Part shown: in pieces, positions 1-62,713 of the stretch
Layout: the number at the start of each line of letters is the position of its first letter
How positions within the stretch are numbered: the first letter of the stretch is position 1
Assembly (NCBI GenBank): GCA_963829055.1
Contig: CAWHHI010000004.1
Span: forward strand, 640,001 to 704,000
Reading direction: 5' to 3'
Origin: an uncultured Gemmatimonadaceae bacterium
GTDB lineage: Bacteria > Gemmatimonadota > Gemmatimonadetes > Gemmatimonadales > Gemmatimonadaceae
DNA length: 64,000 nt
Translations under genes and position numbers: made by a program
The notes under the pieces: generated by a model
The model's database searches: none
What the model was told of the DNA's origin: nothing
Seen by the model: only the letters and a program-made list of their open reading frames with translations

Positions 1-1192
1 CACGCGCCAGTCGGTGATTCAGCAGCGCGCGCGGATAGCGCCCGTACCCGGCGAACAGTTCGTCGCTGCCTTCACCGGTCAGCACGACCTTCACGTTCGC
101 GGCGGCCAGCTCGGACACGAAATAGAGCGGAATGCTGGCCGAGAACGTCAGCGGCTGATCACGGTGATGCGTTAGGCGCGGCAGCGCTTCGAAGAACTGT
201 CGCGCCGTGCACATCACCTCGTGATGATCGGTGCGCGAACGTCCGAGGCGACATCGCGGGCGAATGGGAGCTCGCTCGCCTCCGCTTCCGCGAAACCGAC
301 CGAGAAGGTGCGCAGCTCGTTGACGCCGCGCTCTCGCATCGCGGCCACGATGAGACTCGAGTCCACGTCCGCCGCTGAGAAAGACACCGAGCGGCACGTC
401 AGCTCATGAGTGTCACGTCGACGGCTTCGACGAAGCGCCGCCAGAACTCATCGGCGGCTTCCGATAGCGACATGACCGACCGCGTCCCTCGCGCCAACGG
501 ACTCGCGTCGTAGTCGGGCAGGTCCCAGTACCGATCCAGCCTAACGCTTCCGTCGCGCCATTCCAGCGTGTGGCCGGGCTGGCAGCTTGCGCACGCCGCG
601 ATAGAGCGTCCGCTCGCCCCCGAGGGAGCCGATGGCGAAGTACTCTGTCACCAGAGCGTCATCGAGCTCCGGCTCGATGAGCCCACTCGCGAAGATCGCC
701 TTGATCTCCGAGCCGAACACCAGATCGCCCGCGGCGGTGAGCGCGTAGAAGAGCGGCTTGATTCCGCTGCGATCCCGGGCGAGCAACAACGTGCGGCGCC
801 GCTCATCCCAGATGGCGTACGCGAACATGCCTCGCAGCCGATCGGGCGATTGCCGGCCGTGCTCCTCGTACAGGTGGATGATCGCTTCCGTATCGCAACG
901 CGCTTCGAAAAACGTGCCCGCCTGCTTCCAGCGGTTGCCGGTACTCGCTGTGGTTGTAGACCTCGCCGTTGTACGCGATCCACACCGTTTCGTCCTCGTT
1001 GGCCATCGGCTGATGCCCACCGCCGAGGTCGACGATCGACAGTCGTCGATGCCCGAGGACGACCGAACCCGAGCGATACACGCCCACGTCGTCCGGCCCG
1101 CGATGCTCGATCGACCGCGTCATCCGGTCGATTACATCGGGCGCGACCGAAGCTGCGCGATCGGCGAGCGCTACACCACAGATTCCACACAT
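1..1192 (-). CDS. asnB: Asparagine synthase (glutamine-hydrolysing)-type amidotransferase; runs off window start, frameshifted
   Basis: N-terminus MCGICG with the Ntn Cys; motifs HRGPDD, LGHRRLSIVDL, YNGEVYNH, LRGMFAYAIWD, LARDRSGIKPLFY; VKVVLTGEGSDELFAGY near position 1-100. Confidence 0.92.
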
Positions 1193-1198
1193 CGACTG

Positions 1199-3502
1199 TT
1201 ACCTGTCCTTCCCCGAAGAAGTAGAGCCATCGCGCGGAGTCTCCACGAGAACCGGACGATGCTCGGCGCGGAGCGTAATGGCGGCGTGCACCCCGGCGCG
1301 GCCGGCGTATCCGATGGAGCAACGGACTCCTGCCGCACCCTGGTCGACCGTCGACATCGATGAGCCAGGCTCCGCGAATGCGGTCAGCAGCCACGTTGGC
1401 GCGTCGCAGCGGTAGCGCAGTCGAAGCGTCTGCGATGACACCTCGCGTCCGTAGCCTGGAGAGGCAACGCTGGGTTCGATCGTGGCGCTCTCGAGGGTCG
1501 CTGACGGCGCGTGAGCCCAGGTCGCGAGGTAGCGGTCAGCGCTCACCCCTGCGGCGGTCGATGCGCATGGCGCTTCGGCCAAGGGCCACTGGAGAGTCAC
1601 TCGCTCGCTGCCAGACGGCACGAGCCAGTCCGCGATCAGCACACCCCACCGCGGTACCAGCACGACCTGGCGTCGATGCGTTAGGCGCCCGACAGTTCCG
1701 TCCCGCTCGTACACGAGCGCGCACGACCACAGACCGGCCGAGTCGCCTTCATCGACCGTGGGAGTTGGTGCGACGCGAGTCCACGAAAACGATCCCGACG
1801 GGACAGCCAGCGGCACGTCATCGATGGCGAGACACGCGTGCGCCTGCTCGGAGCGATACCAGTCGCGGCGTTCAGGATCGATGGTGTAGCCACTGCATCC
1901 CGGATCGCTGACGATCCGAGTGCTGCCTCGCGAGATCTCGACATGCCCGAGGTCCGTGTGCGCGTGGCCAGTTCGGTCACCGCCGTGCGGCCCAGCGTCG
2001 ACCACACAGTGCCATGGGTCCGGGACGCCATGCTCTCGCGCGATGTAGTACCCGGCGGCTGGAAGCCGCGTCGCTTCTATCGCGTTGGCGCGCGGCGCGC
2101 TTGCCGATGCCATGTGAGAGCTGAGCGTGGTCCAGGCCGCATCGTCGACGAGCCACCACGCACCGGACAACGCCGACTCGCGCACGTGTTCGAGCCACGC
2201 GCGATTTCCGAAGTACGCGGCGCCGGTCGCGAGCAAGGGACCGTGGTCCTGAGCATGTGAAGTCGCCAGGAGTAACGTCGACCCACTGTCTTCGTCCCCA
2301 ATCACCGGCCAACTGCCGTCAGGGCACTGGAACGCCGCGCTCGCATCGAGCATTGCCCGCAGTCGAGCCTCGAGTCCACTGGGAGCCGGGATGGCCGACG
2401 TCCGACAGAGCAACCAGAGGTGTAGGTAGAACTCCGCGGTGTATCGGTGATACCCAACGGAGCGCTCGAAGTGCATGCCGTCGTCCAGCACCTGGCGCGC
2501 GAGCTCGGACGAGAGGATCGCAGTGCCTCGCCTCGTCCACAACGCGCTCCGTCTGAACTCGGGAAACGATGCTCCGACGTAGACGAGCGCCAGCGCCTCG
2601 CCGGTCAGATGTGTGTTCGGGCTGTGGTGTGTCGAGTCGTACCGTTCGATGTGCCGAGCATGATGCCAGAGCGACGAGAGAAATCGCGTGAGCACGGGAC
2701 CATCCCATGCGCGCGACTCTCGGGTGAGTGCCCAGATCCAGCACCACGCAACCGCGCGGAACGCGACTTCGAGGCTGCTCGTCCAGTTGATTCCCCGAGC
2801 TGGTGGATTTTGCTCGATCCACCCTTCGAGCAACTGCACCGCGCGATCCGCGAACCGGTCGTCCTTGGTGAGAAAGTAGCCCTGTGCCAACCGGACGATG
2901 AGCGCGTGGCGGTTCAGCTCCCAGAGAAACTTGACATCGCCGCCATCGATGCCGCGCATGTACCGCACGCGGTGCCAATGGCGGCTGTCGGTCGACGCGC
3001 CGGTGATGGGGTGAACGGTCCATGCGTGAGTTGCATCGACGCGTACCTGCTGGCCAAAAAGGGACCAGTCCCCTTGGAGTGCCGAAGACGCCAGCTCGAG
3101 GAGTCGCTTCCGGTCGGGAAGCGTGTCCGGGTCCCGGTCCAGCAGATGCACGAGCGGGAATCGCCCAGCTGCCCGCTGTGCAAGCATCCGGCGAAGCTCG
3201 GACGGGTCTCGAGCCCAGGTGGCCGCGTCGGTCGTGAGGCGGTCAGCGAGGCGTCCGCGTACGGCATCGGTACGGACGTCGAGCACGACGTCGAGCCGCT
3301 TGGTCAACTCTTGCCGCAATCGAACTAGCGTCGCAAACGGCGGGCGTCGGGATGGAGGCAAAACCGGTGTGAAGCGTGGTGACGGGAGCGGGATCAGCGG
3401 TGCCGCAGGAGTCGCAGCCCGCTGACCACGAACAATAGCGGAGCGCCCGATCGCACGGCCCATCAGAGCGGGCTCGATGCAATCCGGTGCTCGATCTGGC
3501 AC
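1199..3502 (-). CDS. Heparinase II/III / alginate-lyase-like family protein (start uncertain)
   Basis: Motifs WELNRH, INWTSSLEVAFR, NTHLTGEA, DDGMHFERSVGYHRY, GHAHTD, typical of this family in polysaccharide loci. Confidence 0.85.
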   Translation of the reverse strand: MPDRAPDCIEPALMGRAIGRSAIVRGQRAATPAAPLIPLPSPRFTPVLPPSRRPPFATLVRLRQELTKRLDVVLDVRTDAVRGRLADRLTTDAATWARDPSELRRMLAQRAAGRFPLVHLLDRDPDTLPDRKRLLELASSALQGDWSLFGQQVRVDATHAWTVHPITGASTDSRHWHRVRYMRGIDGGDVKFLWELNRHALIVRLAQGYFLTKDDRFADRAVQLLEGWIEQNPPARGINWTSSLEVAFRAVAWCWIWALTRESRAWDGPVLTRFLSSLWHHARHIERYDSTHHSPNTHLTGEALALVYVGASFPEFRRSALWTRRGTAILSSELARQVLDDGMHFERSVGYHRYTAEFYLHLWLLCRTSAIPAPSGLEARLRAMLDASAAFQCPDGSWPVIGDEDSGSTLLLATSHAQDHGPLLATGAAYFGNRAWLEHVRESALSGAWWLVDDAAWTTLSSHMASASAPRANAIEATRLPAAGYYIAREHGVPDPWHCVVDAGPHGGDRTGHAHTDLGHVEISRGSTRIVSDPGCSGYTIDPERRDWYRSEQAHACLAIDDVPLAVPSGSFSWTRVAPTPTVDEGDSAGLWSCALVYERDGTVGRLTHRRQVVLVPRWGVLIADWLVPSGSERVTLQWPLAEAPCASTAAGVSADRYLATWAHAPSATLESATIEPSVASPGYGREVSSQTLRLRYRCDAPTWLLTAFAEPGSSMSTVDQGAAGVRCSIGYAGRAGVHAAITLRAEHRPVLVETPRDGSTSSGKDR

Positions 3503-5207: not shown

Positions 5208-7443
5208 ATGAAGCAGGTCTTACGGAAGGGATTGAAAGAGATCGTTGTGGACGAAGTGCCGGACCCGGTGGTTGCGCCGCATCACGTGTTGGTGCGCCCT
5301 GCCCGGTCGCTCATCAGCAGCGGCACCGAGACCGCGAGCATCCATGCCGAAGGCGTGGTCCGTGGCGTCGCTGAGAATCCATCACATCTCAAAAAGGTCT
5401 GGGATGCGGTGAAGGTCGCAGGTCCCATGGGGACCTACGACGAGATCTCCGCGAAAATGAAGACGGAGTACGGCGTCATGGGCTACTCGGGTGCCGGGTA
5501 CGTCGTCGAGAAGCATCCGACCGTGACCGATCTCGAAGTGGGCGCTCGCGTCGCCTACGGAGGCGAGGGAACGGGCCACGCGGAAACCGTGCTCGCGGGC
5601 CGTTATCTCGTAGCCCGCGTGCCCGACGAGGTGTCGTTCGAGGAAGCATGCTTCACGACGGTGGGCAGCATCGCGCTGCATAGCGTCCGCGTGGCGAACA
5701 TCAGCCTCGGCGATGTGGTCGCGGTCATCGGGCTGGGACTCGTCGGCCAACTCGTCGCGCAGCTCGCGCGAGCGCATGGCGCTGTGGTCATTGCCATGGA
5801 TATCAGGGCTGACCGTATCGCGCTCGCTCGAACGTTAGGCGCCGACCATGGTGTGCCGGTTGGTGACGAGGCCGAACGTCAGGTGGCTGCCCTCACCGAT
5901 GGTCGTGGCGTCGACCGGGTCATCGTGGCGGCCGCGGCCAAGACATCCGCCCCGTGCGAGCTCGGCATCCGGCTGTGCCGCGACCGTGGCAAGATGGTCA
6001 TCGTCGGCGCGGTCGAGATGAACCTCTCACGCGACCTCCTGTATGCGAAGGAGATCGACGTGCTGATGTCGCGCGCCTACGGCCCCGGGAGCTACGACGC
6101 CGGATACGAACGCGGCGGCAAGGATTATCCGATCTCGTACGTCAGGTGGACCGAGAACCGGAACATGGAAGAGTTCCTCCGGCTTGATCGCGACAGGTCG
6201 CGTGAACGTCCGCGAGATGATCACGCACCGCTTCGCGCTGTCGGACGCACCGAGTGCGTACACCACCATCATGGACCCGTCGAAGAACAGCATGGCGGTC
6301 GTCCTGACGTACCCTGACCACGCTGACGGCGCGCCCGCGGCAGCGCCTGCGTTCCAGCCGCAGCGGAAGGTGTCGATCGCGACCTCGGCTCCGACCAACG
6401 ATCGCCTGCGCGTCGCGCTCGTAGGCGCGGGCAACCTGGCCAAGTGGGCGCATCTCCCGAATCTCCGCAAGCTGACGACCGCGCAGCTGCACGCCGTGTA
6501 TTCGGCCAGCGGTGCTCGGGGAAAGAGCTACGCCATGCGCTTTGGTGCGGCGTACGCCTGTTCGGAGTACCAGCAGATTCTCGACGATCCGCAGATCGAC
6601 GTCGTGCTCATCGCGAGCCGCAACAAGGAACACGCGGACCAGGCGGAGGCGGCGCTCCGCGCGGGGAAGCACGTCTTTCTCGAGAAGCCGATGGCGCTGA
6701 CCGAGGATGAATGCCGACGCCTAACGCGCGCGGTCGACGAGACGGGGCTCCAGTTGACTGTCGGTTTCAATCGGCGGTTCGCACCGTTCTACGTCGAACA
6801 GAAGCGACTCCTGTCACGACGAAGCGGTCCGGCGGTCATCAATTGTCGAGTGAACTCTCCGGGACTTTCCGGCGCCTATTGGGCCGCCGAAGCCGCGCAC
6901 GGCGGCGCGATCCTCGGGGAAGGGTGCCATTTCGTGGACCTCCTGTACTGGCTGCTCGATTCGGAGCCGGTGTCCGTCAGCGCTGTGTGCTTGCCCACCG
7001 AGACGCCTGACCCGATCGGGGAGCACAACCTCGCGGCGAGCATCGCGTTTGCCGACGGGTCGATCGCGAGCTTCACCTACTGCACTGTTGGCAGCAAGAC
7101 GTCAGGCGGCGAGCGGATCGAGACGTTCATCCCGGGGCTCGGCTCCGTCGTCGAGGACTTCAAGAATCTGCAGGTGCGCGGGGGGATGAGTCGTACGAAG
7201 TCGCAGTGGTGGCCGGAGAAAGGCTATGGGGCGCAACTCGAGTCGTTCATCGATTCCATTCGCACGCGGAAGGCGCCTGCCGTGACCGTCCGCGACGGCG
7301 CGCGCGCGACCCTCATGTGTCTACGCCTGCTCGAGTCCGCGCGCGATCGGCGGCCACGGGAAGTCGATCTGGACGCGTTCCTGAGTGATGGTCGCTCGTC
7401 GCCTAACGGCACGTCGTCACGGCTCACCGGCGTCGGGGCGTGA
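5208..7443 (+). CDS. Bi-domain oxidoreductase (Zn-ADH-like plus Gfo/Idh/MocA), one frameshift near 6185
   Basis: SLISSGTE, GYSGAG, VIGLGLVG, SRAYGPGSYD, YVRWTENRNMEEFL, then LVGAGN, HVFLEKP, VGFNRRF. Confidence 0.9.
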
Positions 7444-7565
7444 ACCGTCGACGCCGGAGCATGCGGCGAGATGTGTGAGATCGGGCGCCGCGCGATCGCG
7501 CGGCGCCCCATCACCCGACCACCGCGCCTAACGAGCGCAGTGACGCGCGTCGGCGCACGGTCCGT

Positions 7566-13668: not shown

Positions 13669-14852
13669 ATGCGCATCGGCGTCGATGCGACGTGCTGGGC
13701 AAACGGTCGCGGTTACGGGCGCTTCGCTCGTGAGCTGCTTCGCGCCATGGTCAGTCGAGGGTGCGTCGCACGAGTTCGTGTGCTTCGTCGACGACCGCGC
13801 GGCGCGTTGCTTCGATCTCACCGGCGCCGGTGTGCGCATGGTCGTCGTGCCGCAGTCGGCGTCGCCGACGACCGCGGCGAGCGCCACCGGCAGTCGTTCG
13901 GTCGGCGACATGTGGCGAATGACGCGAGCGGTCGCGCGCGAGGAGCTCGACGTGTTTTTCTCGCCGTCGGTCTACACGTATTTCCCGCTGCCGCCATCGC
14001 TCGCCGCGGTGATCACGTTTCACGACGCGATCGCCGATCGCTTTCCCGAGCTCACGCTGCCGTCGCTCGCGCGCGCGACTCTTCTGGCGCATGAAGGTGC
14101 AGATGGCGCTGGCGCAGTCACGCATCGTGCTCACGGTGTCGGACTACGCGGCGTCACAGGTGAGCCAAGACGTTAGGCGTCGACCGCGAGCGCATTCGCG
14201 TGGCGGTGGAAGCGGCGGCGTCGGTCTACACGCCGAGCGAGTCGAGCGCGAGGACATTGTCACGGCGGCGCGCGCGTGCCGGGGTGCCCGACGGTCGGCG
14301 CTGGTTCACGTACGTGGGCGGCTTCAACCCGCACAAGCACGTCGACGCGATCGTGCGTGCGCACGCGACGCTCGTGCGCGACGTCGCCGATCCGCCGACT
14401 GCTCGTGCTCGTCGGCGCGCTCGACGACGATCCGTTCTTCGGCTCGCAGCAGCGCATCCGCGACGAGATCGCGCGGTGCGGCACGGGCGACCACGTTCGG
14501 TGGGCCGGCTACGTGCCGGACGACGAGCTGCGCCACCTGCTGTCGGGCGCGCTCGCGCTGGTCCTGCCGTCGGAATCGGAAGGGTTCGGGCTGCCCGCGG
14601 TCGAGGCCGCGGCGTGCGGCATTCCCGTCATCGCCACGACGCGAGAGCCCGCTCCCGCAGCTGCTCGACGGGCGGCGGCATCTTCGTCGCGCCCGGCGAC
14701 GAGGCGGCGTTAGGCGCCGCGATGCGGCGCTCGCGACCGACGAGCCGCACCGCGCGCGCTCGCCGCGGGCGCGCTGGCGCGCGGCGCGCGCGCTGAGCTG
14801 GACGTCGAGCGCGCGGCGGCGCTCGACGCGCTCGACGGAGGCGGCCGCGTGA
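13669..14852 (+). CDS. Glycosyltransferase family 4, several frameshifts
   Basis: MRIGVDATCWANGRGYGRF, YVGGFNPHKHV, LPSESEGFGLPAVEAAACGIPVI. Confidence 0.85.
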
Positions 14853-16132
14853 CCGGCGCGCTCCGCTTCTGCATGTTCTCGACGTTCTACCCGCCGTACA
14901 GCTACGGCGGCGACGGCATCACGCTCCAGCGGCTCTGTCGCGCGCTCGTGCGAGCCGGCCACGAGGTGACCGTCGTGCACGACGCCGACGCGTACCGTCG
15001 TTAGGCTACCCGCAGCCCGACGGCGGCCGCCGCCGACGACGGCGTCGATGTCGTGACGCTGCGCAGCTCGCTCGGGGTCCTGTCGGTCCTCCTGACGCTA
15101 CCAGTTCGGGCGTCCGGTGGTGCACGGCGCGGAAATCGAGGCGCTGCTCGCCGCGCGACAGCTTCGACGTCGTGCACTTTCACAACGTGTCGCTCGTCGG
15201 CGGTCCCGGACTGTTCGCGTCTCGCCCGCGGCGTCCGCGACCGTCTATACGGCGCACGAGCACTGGCTCGTCTGCCCCACGCACGTGCTGTGGCGCCATC
15301 GTCGCGAGCGCTGCACGGGCCGCGAGTGCTTCCGGTGCTCGCTGCACTACGGACGTCCGCCGCAGCTCTGGCGAAGCACGGGGCTGCTCGAGCGATCGCT
15401 CGACGACGTCGACACGTTCATCGCGCTCAGCGAGTTCAGTCGCGACAAGCATCGCGAGTTCGGATTCCCGCGCGACATGGAAGTGCTGCCGCCGATCGTG
15501 TTCGACGCGGATGCGGACACGATCGACGCGCCTGCGGTGAGCCCGCATCCGCGCCCGTACTTCTTCTACGCCGGCCGACTCGAGCGCATCAAGGGGCTCG
15601 ACGACGTGCGTGCCGCTGTTCCGCGATGCCGACGCGCCGGCCGACTTGCTGATCGCCGGGGCTGGGTCGCACGAGCGCGCGCTTCGAGCGCTCGCCGGCG
15701 ACTCGCCGCGCATTCGCTTTCTCGGCCACGTCAGGCCGGAGCGGCTCGCGCCGCTCTATCGGCACGCGATCGCGCACATCGCGCCGTCGGTCTGCTTCGA
15801 GACGTTCGGCAACACGCTGGTCGAAGCGTTCCGCCAGAGCACCCCGGTCATCGCGCGACGCATCGGCCCGTTCCCGGAGATCGTCGCGCACGCCGGTGGC
15901 GGTGAGCTGTTCGACGACGCCGACGACCTTCGCACGGCGCTCGACGCGCTTCGCGTCGGACCGAGCGACTATCGCGACCGGCTCGGCGCCGCTGGACGGC
16001 GCGCGTACGAGCCGACGTGGTCGGAGGAAGCGATCGTTCCGCGATATCTCGAGATCGTCGAGCGGACCATTGCGCGCCGGCGTTCGCCGGCCACGCTCGG
16101 CCGCGCCGGCGGTCGCGGTCACGTAGGCCTGA
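14849..16132 (+). CDS. Glycosyltransferase family 4, several frameshifts
   Basis: STFYPPYSYGGDG, YTAHEHWLVCP, YAGRLERIKG, PSVCFETFGNTLVEAF. Confidence 0.8.
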
Positions 16133-26610: not shown

Positions 26611-26626
26611 GCCGGTGCCGGCCGGC

Positions 26627-33667: not shown

Positions 33668-33695
33668 GCAGCCGCTTCGGTCGCGAACGCTGTCG

Positions 33696-37885: not shown

Positions 37886-37886
37886 C

Positions 37887-45638: not shown

Positions 45639-45815
45639 CGTTGCCTAACGTTGCGCGGCATCCTGCGGAGCGCTGGGCCGGGGATGCTCGTCGGCGCCCA
45701 GTCCACCGTAACCGGCAGAATGGTAATCGCCCGAGGCCGGGTGATTACGCCGGCGCGGACACAAGGTCCGACCCTGCACCATTTGAGCGGCTCCGGCGCC
45801 TCACGTTAGGCAACG
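45639..45815. repeat. 13-bp perfect inverted repeat enclosing 177 bp
   Basis: CGTTGCCTAACGT at 45639-45651 and ACGTTAGGCAACG at 45803-45815. Confidence 0.7.
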
Positions 45816-50180: not shown

Positions 50181-51131
50181 ATGCTCGACCCAGAAAAGCA
50201 CTCCGCCCCTCCGCTCGTCCTGATAGCCAACGACCAGGAATGGTCTGCGCGTTCCCTCGAAAGCATTCTCGGCCCGCAGGGATACGCCGTTGTCCGCGCG
50301 CACACGGGTAGACAGGCGATCGACCTCGTGTGGCGTACGCACCCCGACGCGATCGTCATCGATTCGGGGATGCCTGACATTGGTGGCGTCGAAGTCTGCC
50401 GATTGCTGCGTCGAGACCCGCGCTTCCCGGCGAGTACACCAGTCATCGTGACCGCGGCAGGGCCCACCGCCCGGTCCGAGCGTCTGGAAGCATTCCGCGC
50501 TGGAGCGTGGGAGTACTGCCCCGACCCGATCGATGCGGAGTCGCTGCTGTGCAAGCTCGAGACCTTCATCGCATCGAAGCGGGAGCTGGATCAATGCCAC
50601 GACGAGAGTCTGCTCGATCGCGTCACCGGCCTATACAACGTGCGCGGACTGACACGGCGCGCACAGGAGCTTGGCGCCGACGCCTCTCGTCGCCAGGCGC
50701 CCCTGTCGTGTGTCGCGCTGTCCGCGATGCCTAACGTCGATGTCGGCGACGCGGACGGTGACGAGCTCTCGCAGCGGATTGGGGAGCATCTCGGCGGGAT
50801 CTTCCGCCGGGCCGCTCGCGTGTCTGACATCGTCGGTCACCTCGGTCGATCGGAGTTCGGTATCATCGCGCCCGCGACAGCGGCCGGTGGCGCCGTGCGG
50901 CTGGTCGAGCGTATTCAGGAAATGGTGCGATCGACTCCGCTCGTCGCCGACGGCGGCGACCACCCGCTACAACTTCGTGCGGGCTATTGCGCTGTTCCGA
51001 ACTTCGCGGAGTCGTCGGTGGATGCGGTCGAACTGCTGCTGCGTGCTGCGACCGCGCTGCGCCACGTGAAGGGAAGCGAGGCGCGCGGTATTACCGCGTT
51101 CGAGGACGTCCCTCTCCGGTTCGTGCACTGA
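50181..51131 (+). CDS. Response regulator: REC plus degenerate GGDEF domain
   Basis: VLIANDQEW, IDSGMPD; DRVTGLYNVRG; active site reads GRSEF. Confidence 0.85.
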   Translation: MLDPEKHSAPPLVLIANDQEWSARSLESILGPQGYAVVRAHTGRQAIDLVWRTHPDAIVIDSGMPDIGGVEVCRLLRRDPRFPASTPVIVTAAGPTARSERLEAFRAGAWEYCPDPIDAESLLCKLETFIASKRELDQCHDESLLDRVTGLYNVRGLTRRAQELGADASRRQAPLSCVALSAMPNVDVGDADGDELSQRIGEHLGGIFRRAARVSDIVGHLGRSEFGIIAPATAAGGAVRLVERIQEMVRSTPLVADGGDHPLQLRAGYCAVPNFAESSVDAVELLLRAATALRHVKGSEARGITAFEDVPLRFVH

Positions 51132-51220: not shown

Positions 51221-51268
51221 CGTGCTGGAACTTCACGCCGACGTTAGGCGAATGAAGCCAAGGCAGTC

Positions 51269-53698
51269 CTAGTTCCGGCGCGCCGGCAGCGACGAGCCAC
51301 CGCCACCCGCCTGAACGAGTCGCGGCTCCTCATCCTCGTCGAGCGTGCCGTAGCCATCGAGGTAGGCGTAGTACTTGTACATCCCCTCGGCCTGAATGTC
51401 GTTCAGCACCGCACCGATGAGACGGACCGGGAGTCGGTCCAACGTCGTCAGCTTCGCCTGTGCGAGCTTGCGATCGGTCTGTCCGGTGCGCAACACCAGC
51501 AGCATGCTGCCCGCCGCGGCACCTAACGCGTATGGGTCGATGCCGGCACCGAGCGGTGCGGTATCCACAATGATCGCGTCGAACCGCGAGCGAAGCCCAC
51601 GGATCGTCTTCACCGTCGCGTCGGCCGCCAACAACTCGGGGCCGCGATGACGCCGTGTGCCGCACGGGATCACGAACAGATTGCCGTGCGACGTCTCGCG
51701 GATGACATCCTCGATCGCAACGTCGCCCGTCAGGTGGTCGACGAGCCCCGGACGCTGAGGAATCGAGAACGTCGAGTGCAACTGGCCCCGACGAATGTCG
51801 CCATCGATCAACAGCGTGCGGTATCCCGCTTCGGCGAATGCGAGCGCGAGGTTCGACGAGATGAGAGACTTGCCGTCTCCGGGCCCAGGGCTGGAGATCG
51901 CAAGCATCACCGGCCCAGTGCCTTCGGCCGCGTTGCGTACATTCAGGCGGAGGCCTCGGAAGGCTTCGACAAGCTGCGCCTCGTCCTCCATGCGCGTGGC
52001 GCCGTTCTTCCCGCGACGGATCGTGGGAATGGTACCGAGAATGTCGAGTCCCAGCTCGTGCGTCGCCTGCTCGGGATAGCGGAATCGCTTGTCGAGCAGG
52101 TCGAGGATGATCGCGAGTAGAATCGCGAAGCCCAGGCTCCCACCGATGACGAGCAGCAGGATCATCGGCGCGGTGTTGCTCGCGGGCTGTGACGGCGCGA
52201 CGGCCGAGTCGAGCACGCTCACGTCGGGAATCGCGCTGGCTTCAGCGAGCTTCGCGAGGTTCCACCGACCCTGAATATCCGCGTAGAGGTTCGCCGCCTG
52301 ATCACGCTCGCGAATCAGTCGACCTTCCTCGATCGCCGTCGCGGGTATCTGCTTCATGTCACTCGATGCGGCCGCGATGCGCCGATCGAGCTCGGTTTCC
52401 TCGCTCTTCAGCTGCTCGAGCGTCTGACGCGTGATTGCCGGAATGGTCTGCGTTTTCATGCGCTCGACTTCCGCCTTCTTTGCAATCACGAGCGGCGCGG
52501 AGTCGGTGTACTTCGCGCTCAGGGTGCGGAGATCGGCCTCTGATTTCGTCAGCTCGTCGACGGCATTCTTCAGATTCGGCGACCCGCCCAGTACGCCCGG
52601 AATGCTCAACAGCTGCTCAGGCGTGACTGCGGTGTTCGGTCCTGAGTTCGCCAGGGCCTGGACCGCCTCTCGATTGCGACGCGCGACCTCGGCCTTGACG
52701 CGGAGGTCGAGGAAGCTGAGGATGCCCGGGTTGTCCGTGATTCCGACGCCCGGTTGCACCGTCAACTGGCGCGTCGGCTTCAGAGCGTTCGCGACCTGGA
52801 AATCCTTGAGCTGACGTTCGAGGTTCTGCAGATTGCCTAACGACTGTTCCAGCTGCTCACCGAGCGCAACCCTCTGGTCCGTGAGGTTCCGCTTCTTGAG
52901 CGCGGCGGCCTCGCCAACGAACTCCTCGAGCACGGCGTTCATCGTCCGCGCGAGCTCCTGCGAGCGCTGACCCCGAAGCGACAGTTTGATGAAATTGCTG
53001 TTGGGCGGGGTGAAGACGTTCAGTCGGTTTCGCAGGTCGTTCGCCGCCTCACGCGGCGTGCGGACCGCGAACTTCACCTCCTGACGGGCCGAGAGCTGGT
53101 CAGTCGGCGGAAGCCACGCGAAGCCAACTGTGCGGCCAATGGAATCGCCGAGCGCGCCGCTCTCGACTGTCGCCTTCGTGCGGCCTCGCTTGACTATGAG
53201 GTCGTACTTCTTCGACGCGCGGTTCACCGTCAGGGTGTAGTCGCCCGTCTGCAGGTCGGACGTCGGTTGAAATTCGCGGAACAGCAGCGAGTCGCTGTCG
53301 GATCTGGGCGTGACGTACATCCCGATCTTCCGCGCGACGGGATCCAGAATGGCGAAGCTCTTGAGGAGCTCGCTCCATGCCTGATCGTTGAGCACTACTT
53401 GGGGGCGTACCGGCCCTTTTGGATCAGGCGATTCGCCGACGACGATCGTGGTGTCGACCTGGTAGGTTGGCTTGATGAACCGCGTTGCTACGACCCCGCC
53501 AATGCTGCCCAACAGGACGATGACCGCAATGAGCCACTTGTAGCGTTTCAGCGCCGAGACGTAACGGCCAATGTTGATGGCACCGGGAGCTGGCGGCGTA
53601 GGCGATGCGGGCGGACCCCAGTTCTGACCTGCAAGCGCGCCCCCATCAGGAGCGAGCTCCAATGACGGAGGCGTCGACGGGACGAGAGATCCAGACAT
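51269..53698 (-). CDS. wzc: Polysaccharide co-polymerase / tyrosine autokinase
   Basis: Two TM helices, coiled coil, EAFRGLRLN, SSPGPGDGKS, LLIDGDIRR, IIVDTAP, C-terminal Tyr cluster YKYYAY..Y. Confidence 0.93.
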   Translation of the reverse strand: MSGSLVPSTPPSLELAPDGGALAGQNWGPPASPTPPAPGAINIGRYVSALKRYKWLIAVIVLLGSIGGVVATRFIKPTYQVDTTIVVGESPDPKGPVRPQVVLNDQAWSELLKSFAILDPVARKIGMYVTPRSDSDSLLFREFQPTSDLQTGDYTLTVNRASKKYDLIVKRGRTKATVESGALGDSIGRTVGFAWLPPTDQLSARQEVKFAVRTPREAANDLRNRLNVFTPPNSNFIKLSLRGQRSQELARTMNAVLEEFVGEAAALKKRNLTDQRVALGEQLEQSLGNLQNLERQLKDFQVANALKPTRQLTVQPGVGITDNPGILSFLDLRVKAEVARRNREAVQALANSGPNTAVTPEQLLSIPGVLGGSPNLKNAVDELTKSEADLRTLSAKYTDSAPLVIAKKAEVERMKTQTIPAITRQTLEQLKSEETELDRRIAAASSDMKQIPATAIEEGRLIRERDQAANLYADIQGRWNLAKLAEASAIPDVSVLDSAVAPSQPASNTAPMILLLVIGGSLGFAILLAIILDLLDKRFRYPEQATHELGLDILGTIPTIRRGKNGATRMEDEAQLVEAFRGLRLNVRNAAEGTGPVMLAISSPGPGDGKSLISSNLALAFAEAGYRTLLIDGDIRRGQLHSTFSIPQRPGLVDHLTGDVAIEDVIRETSHGNLFVIPCGTRRHRGPELLAADATVKTIRGLRSRFDAIIVDTAPLGAGIDPYALGAAAGSMLLVLRTGQTDRKLAQAKLTTLDRLPVRLIGAVLNDIQAEGMYKYYAYLDGYGTLDEDEEPRLVQAGGGGSSLPARRN

Positions 53699-55698: not shown

Positions 55699-56858
55699 GC
55701 CCCAGATCCGATCAGGGACGAGTGTCGCCGCAGCGCACGCAGAAGTCCGCCTCTCGCGCGAGCGCCGTCATCGACCAGGTCGACAGCGAATCTGACGTGT
55801 TCGCGACGAGCCCGGTATGGCGCGCCGTCACGGCGGCGGCTCAGGACGTCTGTGCCGAGTGGCCGCACACGGAGCATGGGGCGACCTCACCGGCCGACGT
55901 CCGTGTCACCGTCAGCGCACTGACCGAGAGCGTTAGGCAGGCGTGCGTCGGCGACTCCATCACGTTCGGATCGTTGCCGCCGTTCGTGCCGGTGCGGAGG
56001 GCGCTCGAGCTGCTGCGGCGTGCCTTTCTCGAGCGTGCCGGCTCCCCCGACGTCGCTTCTGCGGAGCCTGGTAGCGTGCTGGAGGTCGTCAAGGCAATGG
56101 AGCGCGTGCAGGACGCGCTCGATGACGACGCCGCGCACCGTTTCGCGGCCCGACTCTCAGGCGAGGATGCGCAGCAGCTCGTCGTGGAGATGGCGCATGA
56201 CATGCGCTCGCCGCTCGGCTCGATCCTCATTCTCGCCGAGCGTCTTCGCTACGGGTCGGGTGGAACGCTGACGCCCATTCAGGAGCGGCAGCTCGGGCTC
56301 GTGTACTCGGCTGCGTTCGGGCTGAGCGCGTTGGCCGGCGATGTGATCGAGCTGGCGCGTGGCGGAACGACGCTCATGGACCAGCCGCCAATGCCGTTCC
56401 TGGTTTCGGACGTGCTGCAGTCGATCATGGACATCCTCAGGCCAATGGCCGAGGAGAAGCGCCTCGTGGTGCGTTGTGTAGGACCTGAGGCGGATCTGCG
56501 CGTCGGATACCAGGCGGCGTTGAATCGGGTACTGCTCAACCTCGCTACCAACGCGATCAAGTTTACGAATGTCGGCTCGGTGGACGTGACGTGTCGCCAG
56601 CTCGACCGGAGCCGCGTCGAGTTTTCCGTGAAGGACACGGGCCGCGGGATTCCGACGCACGTGATGTCCAACCTCTTCGAGGCGTTTCGCCAGCGGCAGG
56701 TCACGGGCGACTACGCGTTCTCGAGCGCGGGGCTCGGCCTCTCGATCTGCAAGAAGCTCATCACCGCCATGGGTGGCGAGCTCGGAGTGGACACGGAGCT
56801 GGAGAAAGGGCACGCGATTCCACTTCGTGCTCGATTTGCCGCAAGGATCGAGATTGTA
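55695..56858 (+). CDS. Sensor histidine kinase without evident TM segment; 3' frameshift near 56810
   Basis: MAHDMRSPL, NLATNAIKFT, VKDTGRGI, GLGLSIC. Confidence 0.9.
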
Positions 56859-56994: not shown

Positions 56995-58290
56995 ATGTCC
57001 CATCGTCGCGACTTCATCGCCACACTCGCCCGCGCAGGGCTGGCAGTCCCGGTCTTTCGTTCCACCGCGCTGGGCTCTGTACTCCGTGCGGAAGTCGTTG
57101 CCGGTGGGCGCGCAGCGGCGCCGCTGGCGGAGGACGAGAGCTACTGGGGCGAGATCCAGCGCGCATTCGACGCGGACAGAACGCTCATCAACCTCAACAA
57201 CGGCGGCGTCAGCCCTACGCCGTCACACGTGCTCGAGGCAATGATCCGCGACCTTCGCTTCTCGAACGAAGTGCCGGTCGAACACATGTGGGGCGTGCTC
57301 GAGCCGCGGATCGAGAGCGTTAGGCGGGAGCTGGCCAAGGAGTTTGGCTGCGACCCGGAGGAAATGGCGATCACGCGCAATGCCTCTGAGTCGAACGAGA
57401 CGATGATCTTCGGCCTCGATCTCAAACGAGGCGACGAAGTCATCGTCACGACGCAGAACTACGGCCGCATGATCACGTCGTGGGATCAGCGTGCGCGCCG
57501 TGAAGGCATCGTGGTGAAACAGATCAAGTTCACCGTGCCGCCACCATCGGACGACTACATCGTCGACCGATTCCGCGAGGCGATCACGCCGCGCACGCGC
57601 GTCATCGAGATCACGCACATCACGAATCTCACGGGGCAGATCCTCCCTGTGGCGAAGGTGGTGGCGATGGCGAGAGCGAAGGGCGTCGAGGTGTTCGTGG
57701 ACGGGGCCCATGCCTTCGCTCACTTCCCATTCACGCGCGACGAGCTCGGATGTGACTACTACGGCACGAGTCTCCACAAGTGGTTGTTGGCGCCGATCGG
57801 AACCGGATTTCTGTACGTTCGCAAGTCGAAGCAGAAGTCGCTCTGGCCGCTCATGGCGGCACCGGCGAGCATGGATGAGAACGTACGGAAGTACGAGGAG
57901 ATCGGCACGCATCCGGCCGCGAACCACAACGCAATCGCCGCGGCCCTAGCGTTCCATCGCGCTATTGGTGGAGAGCGGAAAGTCGCGCGGCTTCGCTACC
58001 TTCGCGACCGGTGGGCCAAGCGACTCATGGCGGAGAGCTCGCGTGTACGCGTGCTCACGCCATTGGACGGGAAGCAGGCTGGAGGTATCGCACTCTTCAA
58101 CGTCGACGGCATCGACAGCGCGAAGCTGCAGGGCTGGCTGTGGACGAAGCACCGAATCATCACGACGCCGATCATCCACGCGGAGTTCAACGGGCTCCGC
58201 GTCACACCTAACGTCTACACCACGCTCGACGAGGTCGACCGGTTCGGCGAAACGGTGCTCGAGGCGGTCGCGCGTGGTGTGAACGCCTAA
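56995..58290 (+). CDS. Class V PLP aminotransferase (isopenicillin N epimerase-like) with Tat signal
   Basis: MSHRRDFI; LNNGGVSP, VDGAH, SLHKWLLAPIGTG. Confidence 0.9.
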   Translation: MSHRRDFIATLARAGLAVPVFRSTALGSVLRAEVVAGGRAAAPLAEDESYWGEIQRAFDADRTLINLNNGGVSPTPSHVLEAMIRDLRFSNEVPVEHMWGVLEPRIESVRRELAKEFGCDPEEMAITRNASESNETMIFGLDLKRGDEVIVTTQNYGRMITSWDQRARREGIVVKQIKFTVPPPSDDYIVDRFREAITPRTRVIEITHITNLTGQILPVAKVVAMARAKGVEVFVDGAHAFAHFPFTRDELGCDYYGTSLHKWLLAPIGTGFLYVRKSKQKSLWPLMAAPASMDENVRKYEEIGTHPAANHNAIAAALAFHRAIGGERKVARLRYLRDRWAKRLMAESSRVRVLTPLDGKQAGGIALFNVDGIDSAKLQGWLWTKHRIITTPIIHAEFNGLRVTPNVYTTLDEVDRFGETVLEAVARGVNA

Positions 58291-58930
58291 CGTTCGGCAA
58301 GCGCCGGCGTCCGGGGCATATGTGTGCCGTCCTGTTCGCTGGCGATGTTCACCGTGCCCCCACCACTCAGTTTCGCGGCGTAGAGCGCCGCATCAGCGCG
58401 CTGCAACCACGAGATCGCGGAGCCGCCACGCGCGAGCTCGGCGACGCCAACGGACAGGTTCAGGGAGAGCGTTGCCGCGCGTTCTGGAAGGCGCGCCTCG
58501 CGCACGACGCGACCCGGTCTCCAAGCGTCGCTGCCTTGACGCTCGGCGTTTCCGTCAGCAGCACCGCGAACTCGTCGCCGCCGTAGCGACACACCAGATC
58601 ACCGCGACGCAGGAAGACGCGAGCGAGGCAGTCGCCGACCGTCCGCAGCGCGGCGTCGCCGATGTCGTGGCCGAACGTGTCATTGGCGACCTTGAACTTG
58701 TCCATGTCGAGCATGGTCACGTGCCGCATCCAGTCCCTGACTTTCGCCTTCGACGCTTCGGCATCCAGCGTCTCAGTATCGAGTGCAAACCGCGCGCACG
58801 TCTGCAGCACGTTGCCCAAGGCGTCGAGGACGATGGACGCGTCACTGGATGCAGGCGTCGACGGTGGGGGCGCGTGCGCAACTATCGACGCGCGGGCTAC
58901 GGGCTTGGCTGGCTTGCCTGTGAAAAACAT
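58287..58930 (-). CDS. Diguanylate cyclase (GGDEF), frameshifted, possibly internally deleted
   Basis: [24 protein letters not shown]-site, [23 protein letters not shown]. Confidence 0.8.
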
Positions 58931-58997
58931 AGCCGAGGTGATGGGTTGACCCTCAGTGTCGACACAGCCCTCGCGAAACTAGAGGATTCCAATCGAC

Positions 58998-61321: not shown

Positions 61322-61956
61322 GCGGGGCTGCTACGTCGGAGTGGGCCGACTTCATCCTCGATGAGTTCAGTTTTTCCGCGTTCCCGCCCGGCTCGCGCGT
61401 GCTCGACGTGGGGTGTGGCAGTGGCGATCAACTCAGGATGCTCCGAGAGGCGGGGCTCGACGCAATAGGCGTCGAGCCCCGTCGCGAGTTGGTCGACTCG
61501 CTCGTCGCCGAGGGATACGACGTTAGGCAGGGCGTAGCCGAGCAGTTGCCATTCGACGACGCGTCCTGCGACGGGCTCATATGCAAGGTGGTCGTGCCGT
61601 ACACGGACGAGCGCAAAGCTGTCGCCGAATGGGCGAGAGTGCTCCGTCCGGGGTCAGTCGCCCGCGTCAGCTATCACGGCGCTGGATACTACGTTCGTTA
61701 TGTGGTCGACGGGCCGGGCGCCTTGCTTCGCATCTACGGCCTGCGCGCGCTCGTGAACACCTGGTGGTATGCCACCACGGAGCAGCGGTTGCCGGGATTC
61801 ATCGGCGATACCCTCTACCAATCGACGAAGCGGCTCTCAAGGTACTATCGCGAGTTCGGCCTCGCGCTCGAACGGGCAGCGCCGGCGCCGCTCTACCGAG
61901 GCAAGCCGGTGTTCATCTACCACGAGCTTCGGCGATTGCCGACACCCGCGCGTTAG
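61318..61956 (+). CDS. Class I SAM methyltransferase
   Basis: VLDVGCGSG, AEQLPFDDAS, EWARVLRPG. Confidence 0.85.
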   Translation: MSGAATSEWADFILDEFSFSAFPPGSRVLDVGCGSGDQLRMLREAGLDAIGVEPRRELVDSLVAEGYDVRQGVAEQLPFDDASCDGLICKVVVPYTDERKAVAEWARVLRPGSVARVSYHGAGYYVRYVVDGPGALLRIYGLRALVNTWWYATTEQRLPGFIGDTLYQSTKRLSRYYREFGLALERAAPAPLYRGKPVFIYHELRRLPTPAR

Positions 61957-62713
61957 TTGCCGTCTCACGTTCTGCGTGGGGCTCGTCGGCAGCACGGGTC
62001 GCGCAAAGCCGCGCCACCGGACAGCGGTCGCAGTGCCTAACGCGCGCTGTACAGATGAGCGCGCCGAGCTCCATCAGTGCCTGGTTGTGCACCCATGCGG
62101 TGCGACCAGTTCGCGGCAGCAGCTGTGCGGCGATGGTCCATCCAGCGCGCTGGCCAAGCGTCGATTTCGGATCGATTTCGGGCAGGAACGCGCGATGCAG
62201 CACCCGCGCGACGTTCGTGTCGACCAGCGGGGCGCGTCGCTCGTACGCGAACGAGGCCACTGCACCAGCGGTGTAAGCGCCAATACCTGGAAGCTCTCGT
62301 AGCGCGGTGGGGTCGGCGGGTATGGGAGTGCCGTCTCGCGTGACACGCCGCGCGAGTGCGTGGAGGTTGCGCGCACGGGCGTAGTAGCCGAGACCCTCCC
62401 ACGAGGCCACGACGTGCCGCTGCGGCGCTTCGGCGACGTGCTGCAGCGTGGGGAAGCGGGTGAGGAATCGTTCGTAGTAGTCGATGACCCGAGAGACCTG
62501 CGTCTGCTGCAGCATGAGCTCAGAGACCAGAACGCGATACGGATCGCGTGTGCGGCGCCACGGAAGGTCTCGTCCGTGCTTTCGAAACCACGTGCGAAGT
62601 CGCCGTGAAAACTCACGAAGTCGGGCCGGGTCGAGCTCGGGCTCCACGGGTGAGTGCTGCTTGGCGCGTGAACGCGGTTGTCGTGAAACGCGTTCGCTCA
62701 CCGCGGGACCCAC
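61913..62713 (-). CDS. mutY: A/G-specific adenine glycosylase, short form
   Basis: RDLPWR, VSELMLQQTQV, WEGLGYYARARNL, LPGIGAYTA, VDTNVARV, 4Fe-4S Cys motif. Confidence 0.9.
   Translation of the reverse strand: MGPAVSERVSRQPRSRAKQHSPVEPELDPARLREFSRRLRTWFRKHGRDLPWRRTRDPYRVLVSELMLQQTQVSRVIDYYERFLTRFPTLQHVAEAPQRHVVASWEGLGYYARARNLHALARRVTRDGTPIPADPTALRELPGIGAYTAGAVASFAYERRAPLVDTNVARVLHRAFLPEIDPKSTLGQRAGWTIAAQLLPRTGRTAWVHNQALMELGALICTARVRHCDRCPVARLCATRAADEPHAERETATNARVSAIAEARGR

Follow-up and report, generated by a model that had tools for sequence, protein, structure and literature searches.

Why should a single short word be written over and over into one stretch of a bacterial chromosome? The stretch in question covers 64,000 nt (hereafter the window) of G000, a Gemmatimonadaceae MAG of 7.78 Mb that is 86% complete and represents a soil bacterium. 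A reading of the sequence alone had proposed that a non-palindromic octamer, CGTTAGGC, is over-represented throughout the window and could be a signal that selection or drive acting on the DNA itself maintains. Here, we followed the word through the window, the source genome, its relatives, phages and public sequencing runs, and weighed the functions that could account for it.

Copies of the octamer in the window

The window contains 36 exact copies of CGTTAGGC, 22 on the + strand and 14 on the - strand, each at the position previously reported by eye. In 100 dinucleotide-preserving shuffles of the window, the octamer occurred 1.15 times on average and at most 4 times (0/100 reached 36), confirming that its over-representation is real. 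The GC content measured along the window (0.63-0.70) is close to the value of about 67% assumed earlier. The seven one-mismatch copies listed by the sequence-only reading are present as well (positions 21257, 22580, 38453, 44252, 48571, 51521 and 60301). However, the one-mismatch class is only mildly enriched (60 occurrences vs about 46 expected from shuffles), and many of its members, CGTTCGGC for instance, are unremarkable words of high GC content.

Within genes, the word is read in different ways, and the codons previously given for the copies at 5833, 6719 and 57318 were right. CGC CTA ACG is read at 170..177 (+; R-L-T in a gene on the - strand), 1679..1686 (+; within a heparinase II/III-like gene on the - strand), 6719..6726 (-; GFO/IDH/MocA oxidoreductase gene) and 16541..16548 (-; weak ORF call). 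Copies that supply TTA GGC are found at 5833..5840 (+; ACG TTA GGC, T-L-G, ORF 5169-6317), 20529..20536 (+; CCG TTA GGC, P-L-G), 52835..52842 (-; TCG TTA GGC, S-L-G, in a Wzz/tyrosine-kinase-like gene and in this species only) and, by eye, 14708..14715 (+; GCG TTA GGC, ...GDEAALGAAM..., in a glycosyltransferase gene broken by assembly indels). GTT AGG is read at 26625..26632 (-; CGC GTT AGG CCG, R-V-R-P), 36832..36839 (+; GAC GTT AGG CTG, D-V-R-L, nucleotidyl transferase gene), 41286..41293 (+; CGC GTT AGG CTG) and 57318..57325 (+; AGC GTT AGG CGG, S-V-R-R, in a class-V aminotransferase gene and in this species only). CCT AAC is read at 7401..7408 (-; TCG CCT AAC GGC, S-P-N-G, GFO/IDH/MocA oxidoreductase gene), 30744..30751 (+; GTG CCT AAC GTG, V-P-N-V, GT10-like gene on the - strand), 37880..37887 (-; TCG CCT AAC GTG, S-P-N-V, epimerase gene junction) and 50729..50736 (-; ATG CCT AAC GTC, response-regulator/GGDEF gene). 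The last of these is kept in two congeners (G001 and G006) and carries one mismatch in a third (G005).

The copy at 14171..14178 (+) lies in a glycosyltransferase region full of frameshifts, those at 27922..27929 (+) and 28527..28534 (-) at ORF edges, that at 58285..58292 (-) at the end of the aminotransferase ORF, and that at 61521..61528 (+) 3' of the citrate synthase gene. The copy at 55931..55938 (+) is kept in 4/6 congeners (G001, G002, G005 and G006), and the intergenic copy at 51242..51249 (+) is kept in none. Relative to crude ORF calls, the copies at 14999..15006, 18028..18035, 19748..19755, 24090..24097, 33662..33669, 42808..42815, 44069..44076 and 45804..45811 (all +) and at 539..546, 7526..7533, 45643..45650 and 62035..62042 (all -) fall outside called ORFs. 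The copy at 44125..44132 (-) lies 56 nt from the one at 44069, forming a rare close pair.

Genome-wide abundance and anatomy of the word

G000 carries 5,004 copies of CGTTAGGC, about one per 1.5 kb, making it the 14th commonest canonical 8-mer of the genome. An order-3 Markov model predicts 257.5 copies (19-fold fewer), and no other 8-mer has a higher z-score. We also compared 3,549 confident ORFs with ten synonymous shuffles that preserved each protein and the codon usage of each gene; the real ORFs contain 2,652 copies and the shuffles 111.7 +/- 12.3 (24-fold fewer). The reported excess thus survives both null models. Ranking by a maximal-order Markov model fails to single out the word because the 7-mer subwords of the octamer are equally inflated; we therefore used the other two.

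The word is exactly 8 bp long, as its flanks are uninformative (no outside position exceeds 0.13 bit). Substituting T at position 1 or 6, or either T or G at position 8, yields variants that are enriched 3.5-7 times, and variants at positions 2 and 7 show no enrichment. No specific depletion of one-mismatch variants was seen in G000.

Genome-wide, the two strands are balanced (2,547 to 2,457). The leading-strand fraction of the word is 0.533 (1,099:963), compared to a median of 0.526 for 2,640 frequent 8-mers, and the two arms of contig C16 carry 146:99 and 185:209 copies. We found no strong skew switching at the terminus of the KOPS/FtsK type in G000, and the earlier view that the lack of strong polarity makes a Chi or KOPS role less likely holds. 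Furthermore, the copies are evenly spaced, with too few neighbours less than 200 bp apart and too many at 400-1,600 bp. They avoid one another below about 300 bp: we counted 11 neighbours less than 25 bp apart (81 expected), 17 at 25-50 bp (79 expected), 41 at 50-100 bp (155 expected) and 144 at 100-200 bp (295 expected).

Pressure at the DNA level

The word occupies all four stop-free reading frames as well as non-coding DNA, and avoids the two frames that would create a stop (17 stray cases vs 3,214 in open frames). It contains 45% of all TTA codons and encodes 23% of [SPTA]-L-G, 47% of P-N-[VADEG], 21% of [SCRG]-L-T and 10% of V-R-[LPHQR] contexts. The earlier proposal, that the DNA itself is under selection or drive, is borne out by this overriding of codon usage, and the word serves 10-47% of the peptide contexts able to encode it.

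Copies occur in rpoB, rpoC and other ordinary genes. At permissive Leu-Gly sites of rpoC, word-poor genomes use CTC or CTG and several rich lineages use TTA; the same sites were recoded synonymously at Leu to the word in several lineages. No one-step intermediate was found at column 1067 among the 25/27 aligned rows that cover it. Comparison of G000 with the congener G001 (77.6% nucleotide identity) revealed 18 shared sites, 16 sites specific to G000 and 15 specific to G001. Of the G000 sites, 53% are kept in G001, three times the 18% observed for control 8-mers. The word is thus both maintained and turned over between congeners.

Independent assemblies

An error of basecalling or assembly has practically no chance of accounting for these copies. 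G000 does contain single-base indels relative to independent contigs, as well as broken reading frames, as such an error would suggest. However, six other genomes of the genus carry 2,501-5,112 copies each, in assemblies fragmented into 260-1,170 contigs. Contigs from four public runs of four studies (2017-2025, platform not named) also cover positions 50001-60000 of the window, completely in three runs and over 24/30 bins in the fourth, the longer pieces being about 99% identical to the window. Among the 40 differences listed, one falls inside a copy (T>C at 51244, in run X2). The word is not an artefact because these congener assemblies and independent contigs carry it too; moreover, its copies conform to the reading frames, and none of the words one change away is common enough to have given rise to 5,000 copies.

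Phyletic distribution

Only 22/401 Gemmatimonadota genomes contain at least 170 copies, and motif-poor relatives contain 6-50 copies per genome. In a single-gene RpoC tree (FastTree, 27 rows from 26 genomes), rich genomes belong to scattered genera and are interleaved with poor ones, G305 (4,469 copies) being sister to G096 (17 copies). This tree omits G003, G007 and G016 (no match at E <= 1e-100), G020 (partial pieces only) and, for G324 and G293, the second partial piece of each. Four relatives from other genera were sampled, and in these the identical word, not a dialect, is the first or among the highest-ranking 8-mers. Enrichment is likewise seen in 4/61 genomes of one lineage of Acidobacteriota, the phylum sample that includes G479. 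A set of 80 citrate-synthase loci contains 4 copies in 1.34 Mb, and five genomes of other phyla are word-poor. DUS and USS are distributed vertically and family-wide, with dialects; no such distribution was found among the 401 Gemmatimonadota genomes or in the RpoC tree.

Foreign segments and phages

Three stretches of G000, 31-50 kb long, lack any copy. We considered these deserts as possible mobile elements and rejected the idea, as Pfam reveals housekeeping genes that are second, distant copies, including aroC, rpe, folD and DAHP synthase (48-59% identical). In our reading, these segments are not islands but chimeric or foreign DNA.

A search requiring two copies of the word recovered two phage contigs, which are as word-rich as the hosts or richer. 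The first, encoding portal, terminase, scaffold and head proteins, carries 31 copies in 17 kb (1.83 per kb) and is the densest carrier seen. The second, encoding portal and TerL, carries 7 copies in 15 kb (0.46 per kb). Eight proteins of the denser phage had no match in G000 (tblastn, E < 1e-5). According to PMC6776037, co-evolving temperate phages of the Pasteurellaceae likewise accumulate USS, and USS are likewise scarce in foreign DNA.

Candidate readers

G000 encodes components of an uptake machinery, namely ComEC, a secretin and four prepilin-like N-termini; a pilin candidate on contig C16 was rejected, its reading frame being broken. HHH_3 gives a weak, truncated match in an 81-aa frame of G000, and congeners have ComEA-like ORFs. 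In a set of 45-46 genomes hand-chosen to contain rich and poor members, and hence not a random sample, HHH_3/ComEA-like matches occur in 45/45 genomes and secretin matches in 46/46, rich and poor alike. ComP_DUS (PF16732) was found in 0/7 genomes of the genus and exceeds the cut-off in 2/46 genomes, G016 (poor) and G479. FtsK occurs once per genome in the 44 genomes with a match; G000 has a second match, located within a foreign segment, and that of G293 is an adjacent piece of the same gene. Therefore, none of HHH_3/ComEA, secretin, ComP_DUS and FtsK/TraB separates rich from poor among these chosen genomes. We found no Vsr, PF00145, PF01555 or PF02384 in the 86% complete G000. RecC is absent from G000, and two adjacent PDDEXK_1 matches (C15:11673 and C15:15303) suggest an AddAB-like enzyme. 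Our literature searches returned no report of natural competence in Gemmatimonadota and nothing joining this phylum with uptake sequences; among the matches listed for the word itself, none concerned a genomic signal. Of the functions proposed earlier, an uptake-type signal fits best, whereas a modification target is unsupported by the genes found.

Relation to integron attC sites

The octamer can be written as C followed by GTTAGGC, so that seven of its eight letters constitute the core site of an integron attC, a feature that the sequence-only reading had missed. An attC is an imperfect inverted repeat of 57-141 bp, made of an inverse core RYYYAAC and a core GTTRRRY (PMC3053210). The full octamer forms the R' end of attC repeats in the cassette arrays of relatives, and G000 has an integron integrase. 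The copies could thus be integron-related sites, either attC remnants or landing sites of the integrase, a reading that we consider very improbable and largely refuted as a direct explanation. A regex and folding screen identified an attC-like inverted repeat end at only 38/5,004 copies, both strands counted, so that less than 1% of the copies lie in attC-like hairpins. Unlike attC sites, with their paired half-sites and hairpin, more than 99% of the copies have neither and lie in ordinary genes. Only 25/1,197 neighbour pairs in -/+ orientation lie 50-150 nt apart, and these distances together with the screen exclude attC sites for more than 99% of the copies. Furthermore, the integrase exceeds the cut-off in 31/45 genomes, rich and poor alike, and was rejected as a determinant of abundance, with which it shows no correlation. 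Finally, known genomic integrase sites have only GWT in common (bioRxiv 10.1101/2022.09.11.507474).

Discussion

Starting from the demonstrated anatomy, DNA-level pressure, phyletic pattern and uptake machinery genes, our tentative reading, to which we give somewhat less than an even chance, is that CGTTAGGC serves throughout the genome as a DUS/USS-like self tag that biased DNA exchange has accumulated, resembling the tags by which Neisseria and Haemophilus tell their own DNA during uptake. We infer that uptake, or else a different step of DNA transfer, reads the word and that bias plus recombination writes it. Some component of DNA exchange, most likely uptake during natural transformation, would favour word-bearing DNA, and preferential import followed by homologous replacement would spread word-containing alleles. 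The word would then gradually fill the positions tolerated by proteins, on both strands, up to the density seen in G000. A fragment that already bears one copy would gain little from a second nearby, and lineages losing the reader would lose the word. The scale and sharpness of the signal, comparable to DUS and USS, argue for such a tag, as do its balanced strands, its even spacing, its use of all four open frames, its maintenance and turnover between congeners, its absence from foreign DNA and its host-like density in two phage contigs. Against it, the competence genes do not separate rich from poor genomes, and no reader was found, ComP_DUS included, in the genus. The distribution is patchy, rich and poor genomes being interleaved and the same word recurring in Acidobacteriota, and the literature searched contains no report that Gemmatimonadota are naturally competent. 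The identity of the word with the integron attC core and its preceding C is likewise unpredicted by an uptake model.

USS occur about once per 1-1.5 kb and are evenly spaced. Those of the Pasteurellaceae (9-bp core, Hin and Apl dialects) are, like our octamer, short non-palindromic words that occupy both strands, inside coding sequence and outside it. However, USS have an AT-rich flanking consensus and are family-wide, whereas our octamer has no such flanks, is patchy and is identical in a second phylum. The DUS of the Neisseriaceae, read by the minor pilin ComP, is likewise a hyper-abundant self word of the same density class, and type IV pilus parts are present in G000 too. In contrast to the Neisseriaceae, the genus lacks a ComP_DUS homologue, the word has 8 bp instead of 10-12 bp, and terminator-type close inverted pairs are not in excess (4-5 opposite-strand pairs less than 50 nt apart).

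Several other functions would also produce an abundant short word. It could protect DNA as Chi does, by attenuating a nuclease that degrades broken DNA, either of AddAB type or a mobile defence nuclease; chromosomes and the phages surviving in these hosts would therefore be selected for frequent copies in both directions. Chi, read by RecBCD or AddAB, is likewise an over-represented, non-palindromic 8-bp word in which phages can be enriched. The putative AddAB-like pair, the word-rich phages and the word-free foreign segments fit this reading, and a mobile defence gene would account for the patchy, cross-phylum distribution. We nevertheless hold it to be unlikely. Every Chi known to us is co-oriented with replication, whereas our word lacks replichore polarity; its enrichment far exceeds that of Chi, neither RecC nor another specific reader gene was identified, and the enrichment of phages is equally expected for USS. 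Distinctly unlikely, in our view, is a drive by repair or gene conversion of the HIP1/VSP type, in which a nicking, mismatch or editing activity would convert near-cognate sites in any replicating DNA. Such a drive would affect coding, non-coding and phage DNA alike, as observed, a mobile enzyme gene would suit the patchiness, and the switch between CTC/CTG and TTA in rpoC, with no one-step intermediate among the rows examined, is consistent with it. The cyanobacterial HIP1 is likewise an 8-bp word imposed on coding sequence roughly once per kb; however, it is palindromic and linked to methyltransferases, whereas our word is asymmetric, and neither Vsr nor the three main DNA methyltransferase families were found in G000. 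Mutational drive does not predict that close neighbours avoid one another, and the one-mismatch variants, its would-be substrates, are not specifically depleted.

A sharp 8-bp word with a defined tolerance, evenly spaced and conserved at sites shared between congeners, could also bind an abundant chromosome-organising or regulatory protein and be kept at regular intervals by selection. We regard this as improbable, since phages could hardly be expected to carry copies at host density and sister lineages manage entirely without the word; moreover, we know of no such protein whose exact sites within coding sequence number about 5,000. FtsK, SpoIIIE and TraB read DNA through 8-bp non-palindromic words, and our octamer could by analogy be read by a DNA-transfer machine other than uptake. 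The word could then be a pac-like site, used by a gene transfer agent or a transducing phage, or a clt/TRS-like site of an FtsK/TraB-type translocase, and the same bias plus recombination would apply. The phage contig that is the densest carrier favours such a machine, and a mobile reader would suit the patchy, cross-phylum pattern. KOPS, SRS and TRS are likewise asymmetric 8-bp words but are strongly polar or clustered, and our word is neither. With a single FtsK per genome, no additional translocase gene and no match in G000 to the proteins of the dense phage, a transfer machine appears quite improbable.

To our knowledge, uptake-type self words are established in two proteobacterial families only. 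A self tag read during uptake would provide a third case, in an abundant and little-studied soil phylum. Unlike the known uptake systems, it would involve one word in two phyla, switched on and off between sister lineages and sharing its identity with the integron core. The on/off pattern offers natural experiments for a search for the reader by comparative genomics. The word is also a cheap marker of foreign or chimeric DNA in these MAGs, where it flagged three segments, and a cheap marker for linking phages to their hosts and testing selective DNA exchange in soil bacteria. A doubtful but far-reaching extension is that a mobile factor, passed horizontally between soil phyla, reads the word, whose choice would be due to its identity with the universal integron attC core. 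If so, the chromosomes, temperate phages and integron cassettes of a soil guild would share one exchange signal, and word-rich lineages would preferentially import or spare cassette-carrying DNA. DNA uptake or self-recognition would thereby be coupled directly to the integron gene pool, and, if the link to integrons is causal, the specificity of transformation would be tied to cassette capture.

The octamer is enriched throughout the source genome

The octamer, the attC core GTTAGGC with a preceding C, is a real and strong signal that acts at the DNA level. The 36 exact copies reported for the window by the sequence-only reading (22 on the + strand, 14 on the - strand) were recovered at every listed coordinate, and its listed one-mismatch copies and three codon readings were equally correct. 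In 100 dinucleotide-preserving shuffles of the window, the mean was 1.15 copies and the maximum 4. The window corresponds to C4:640001-704000 of the source Gemmatimonadaceae MAG, G000, whose assembly (7,784,024 bases, 20 contigs, GC ~66.6%) contains 5,004 copies, which makes the octamer the 14th commonest canonical 8-mer despite its three A/T letters. The two null models that had been proposed as checks bore out the enrichment: an order-3 Markov model predicted 257.5 copies, giving the octamer the top z-score among all 8-mers, and ten gene-by-gene shuffles of synonymous codons predicted 111.7 +/- 12.3 copies, compared to 2,652 found in 3,549 confident ORFs. The latter null is conservative because the rare codons contributed by the octamer itself are retained. 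Furthermore, flanking positions carry at most 0.13 bit anywhere beyond the eight letters and are thus nearly uninformative, indicating that the octamer is the word itself, not a piece of a longer repeat. No description of it was found in the portions of the literature available to our search.

The enrichment is not an artefact. It had been suggested that absence from other assemblies would betray a basecalling error, and we found 2,501-5,112 copies in each of six congeners, which are assembled in 260-1,170 contigs each and share only ~77% DNA identity. Window positions 50001-60000 are present in 20 public runs from 15 studies, and contigs from four runs of four studies cover this segment, the longer pieces being ~99% identical. 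Among the 40 differences listed, beyond which there are 147 further ones, a single one falls inside an octamer copy (51244 T>C, run X2). The same comparison revealed single-base indels in G000 relative to the independent contigs (window 50034, 53888-53892, 54089, 56805 and 56985-56988). Such assembly indels account for broken reading frames in G000, and its small-gene calls are unreliable.

Most of the window (1200-53800) is occupied by a large polysaccharide gene cluster encoding several GT1, GT2, GT4 and GT10 transferases, sugar epimerases, dehydratases, a DegT aminotransferase, a Bac_transf priming transferase, a Wzz/tyrosine-kinase-like protein and a heparinase II/III-like protein. Frameshifts are visible in a glycosyltransferase gene (window 14640-14720) and in a pilin gene (L189:2580-3095).

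Reading frames, strands, spacing and variants

Using crude ORF calls (5,958 ORFs, 76% of G000), we observed that the octamer is read as xCG TTA GGC in 1,226 copies, xxG CCT AAC G in 898, xGC CTA ACG in 601 and xxC GTT AGG C in 489; the two stop-containing frames hold 17 copies, while 530 lie at ORF edges and 1,243 outside ORFs. In the confident ORFs, the octamer encodes 47% of P-N-[VADEG], 23% of [SPTA]-L-G, 21% of [SCRG]-L-T and 10% of V-R-[LPHQR] tripeptides, and 45% of all TTA codons fall within it.

The absence of strong polarity, as the sequence-only reading held, was confirmed: in the 3.44 Mb that could be assigned by GC skew, the leading to lagging ratio was 1,099:963 (0.533), compared to a median leading fraction of 0.526 for 2,640 frequent 8-mers and 0.62-0.66 for the most skewed words. 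The arms of contig C16 on either side of a skew switch gave 146:99 and 185:209. At this terminus-like switch (C16 ~500000-550000), GC skew and gene-strand bias change sign, and a XerC/D-type recombinase is encoded nearby (C16:541077-541592).

Octamer copies avoid one another at short range. Neighbour distances below 25 bp were seen 11 times (81 expected), 25-50 bp 17 times (79 expected), 50-100 bp 41 times (155 expected) and 100-200 bp 144 times (295 expected), with an excess at 400-1,600 bp.

The one-mismatch words TGTTAGGC, CGTTATGC, CGTTAGGT and CGTTAGGG are enriched 3.5-7x, unlike the words in which the second or seventh letter differs. CGTTATGC occurs 583 times in G000, a 7x over-representation, and lies in the window at 9346, 25431, 29789, 32203, 34801 and 40075. 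CGTTTGGC is the top enriched 8-mer in a 100-kb sample of the relative G010 (28 vs 5). CGTTATGC in G000 and CGTTTGGC in G010 may be tolerated variants or dialects.

Patchy distribution among genomes

The window citrate synthase shares 76-80% identity with MAGs of Gemmatimonadota, Gemmatimonadales and Gemmatimonadaceae. Among 41 relatives counted, all seven genomes of the genus of G000 are rich in the octamer, as is G014 of another genus (6,360 copies in 5.1 Mb, with a preceding T favoured); eight others have 173-605 copies each, and the remainder stay under 70 and under the reversed-word control. In DNA sampled from four relatives belonging to other genera, the same octamer ranked first or high among enriched 8-mers, as the identical word and not a dialect. 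In a sample of 401 genomes drawn evenly across the phylum, 22 have at least 170 copies and eight at least 1,000; the threshold of 170 is reached by 15 of the 94 family members, by 7 of the 166 genomes of a second family and by none of the other 141. Within one genus, three genomes carry 3,479-4,141 copies each and another carries 66. G294, the poor member of genus g46, has rpoC twice, in nearly identical form on separate contigs (L154, L166), and at 5.2 Mb exceeds the three rich congeners in size; the bin may be mixed. On a FastTree phylogeny of a single gene (RpoC, 27 rows), rich genomes are intermixed with poor ones, G305 (4,469 copies) being sister to G096 (17 copies); their 100-kb samples hold 31 and 0 copies, respectively.

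Of 331 Acidobacteriota genomes, one, G479, carries balanced copies (148+151), other raised counts being one-stranded and array-like. Its RpoC shares 58% identity with that of G000, within the 56-60% of other Acidobacteriota. A 146-kb sample of G479 contains 16 copies (1.43 expected; rank 14 of 24,191 canonical 8-mers), mainly in the xCG TTA GGC phase, and 4 of 61 relatives of G479 have 233-780 balanced copies. In G595, G489, G734, G459 and G709, also Acidobacteriota, the strongly one-stranded octamer (e.g. 168:6) suggests large integron cassette arrays. The tallies of 41, 401, 331 and 61 genomes include the word-poor unpublished G013, G086, G204, G125, G575, G447, G472 and G774, which underlie none of the individually named results.

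Between G000 and its congener G001 (69,779 aligned bases, 77.6% identity), 18 octamer sites are common, 16 are specific to G000 and 15 to G001. G000 sites were kept in 53% of cases vs 18% for control 8-mers, and four more congeners provided smaller samples of this kind. At column 1067 of the rpoC alignment, most genomes, G000 among them, read CG CTC/CTG GGC, and eight genomes of four separate clades read CG TTA GGC, with no one-step intermediate seen; column 645 behaves likewise in five genomes. Therefore, the same permissive Leu-Gly sites underwent either parallel synonymous recoding or parallel loss.

The octamer and integrons

The few copies present in poor relatives are grouped on a single strand, 0.4-1.4 kb apart. 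One of these genomes, G027, carries arrays of a ~110-nt repeat that opens with a RYYYAAC-type sequence and closes with the octamer, as expected of attC sites, which these are by sequence (consensus from the available part of PMC3053210). Cassette arrays of poor relatives (G027:C95:1-24000, i.e. L081/L082, and L083-L088) have this repeat every 0.4-2.3 kb on one strand, with 24 copies in 20 kb, and a GC content below the remainder of the contig. G000 encodes an integron integrase (C20:208041-208958, - strand; TIGR02249, 265.7 bits, barely over the cut-off of 265) and an integrase fragment (C4:2862-3170). A few attC-like hairpins with the octamer at both ends lie on the - strand of C20:163000-207000, unlike those of relatives, in which the inverse core ends in A.

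The match between octamer and attC core is unlikely to be due to chance. Nevertheless, only 38 attC-like inverted repeats ended by the octamer exist in G000, both strands counted, integrases over the cut-off occur in 31 of 45 genomes, both rich and poor, and known genomic integrase sites reportedly have only GWT in common (bioRxiv 10.1101/2022.09.11.507474, seen in part). These observations argue against a direct integron role. We rejected the copies as a set of attC sites given the 38 repeats; integrase presence does not track the octamer.

Copy-free stretches and phage contigs

At or near contig ends of G000, three stretches that span 31-50 kb each (C6:5440-55037, C11:1-46789 and C6:591808-623330) are free of copies and encode housekeeping genes, including second copies of the single-copy genes aroC, rpe, folD and DAHP synthase with 48-59% identity to the other copy. 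These stretches probably represent foreign DNA or joins of a chimeric assembly.

A viral contig scan requiring two octamer copies 400-430 nt apart yielded 80 loci with DNA, 37 of which had the seeding pair only. Phage contig L266 (16,975 bp) bears 31 copies on both strands and encodes a major head protein, scaffold, portal and both terminase subunits; a second contig bears 7 copies in 15.3 kb, with portal, TerL and tail protein. Since they were chosen by octamer search, these contigs demonstrate no more than the existence of such phages. In L266, the TAG within the octamer (CGT TAG GC) is the stop codon of at least four - strand ORFs (8502, 9448, 15260 and 15980).

Discussion

Several less likely explanations of the octamer were weighed in the search for a reader. 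Chi-like protection is one: RecC was not found in G000, and a PDDEXK_1 AddAB-like pair is present on C15. Another is a repair drive generating the word; Vsr, PF00145, PF01555 and PF02384 were not found in G000, which is 86% complete. The octamer could also be a structural binding site or the site of a transfer machine. FtsK occurs once per genome, the second FtsK of G000 sitting in one of the three copy-free stretches.

Regarding uptake, G000 encodes ComEC and four prepilin N-termini; a secretin is present in 46 of 46 genomes, G000 included, and HHH_3/ComEA-like matches in 45 of 45, that of G000 being weak. ComP_DUS (PF16732) exceeded the cut-off in 2 of 46 genomes and in none of the seven of the genus. 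The octamer differs from known DNA uptake sequences (DUS/USS) in that the genomes of the genus bearing it are without ComP, its distribution is neither family-wide nor vertical, one word is shared by two phyla, and this word matches the attC core. In Vibrio, transformation supplies cassettes to the integrase, according to the available part of PMC12614218. The octamer resembles uptake sequences in its sharp word, strand balance, even spacing and frame use, and in being scarce in foreign DNA and accumulated in phages, as Pasteurellaceae temperate phages build up USS (PMC6776037, available in part). Because this anatomy agrees point for point with that of uptake sequences, we tentatively favor, at somewhat less than even chances, an uptake-type self tag that would have been written into these genomes by biased exchange and recombination.
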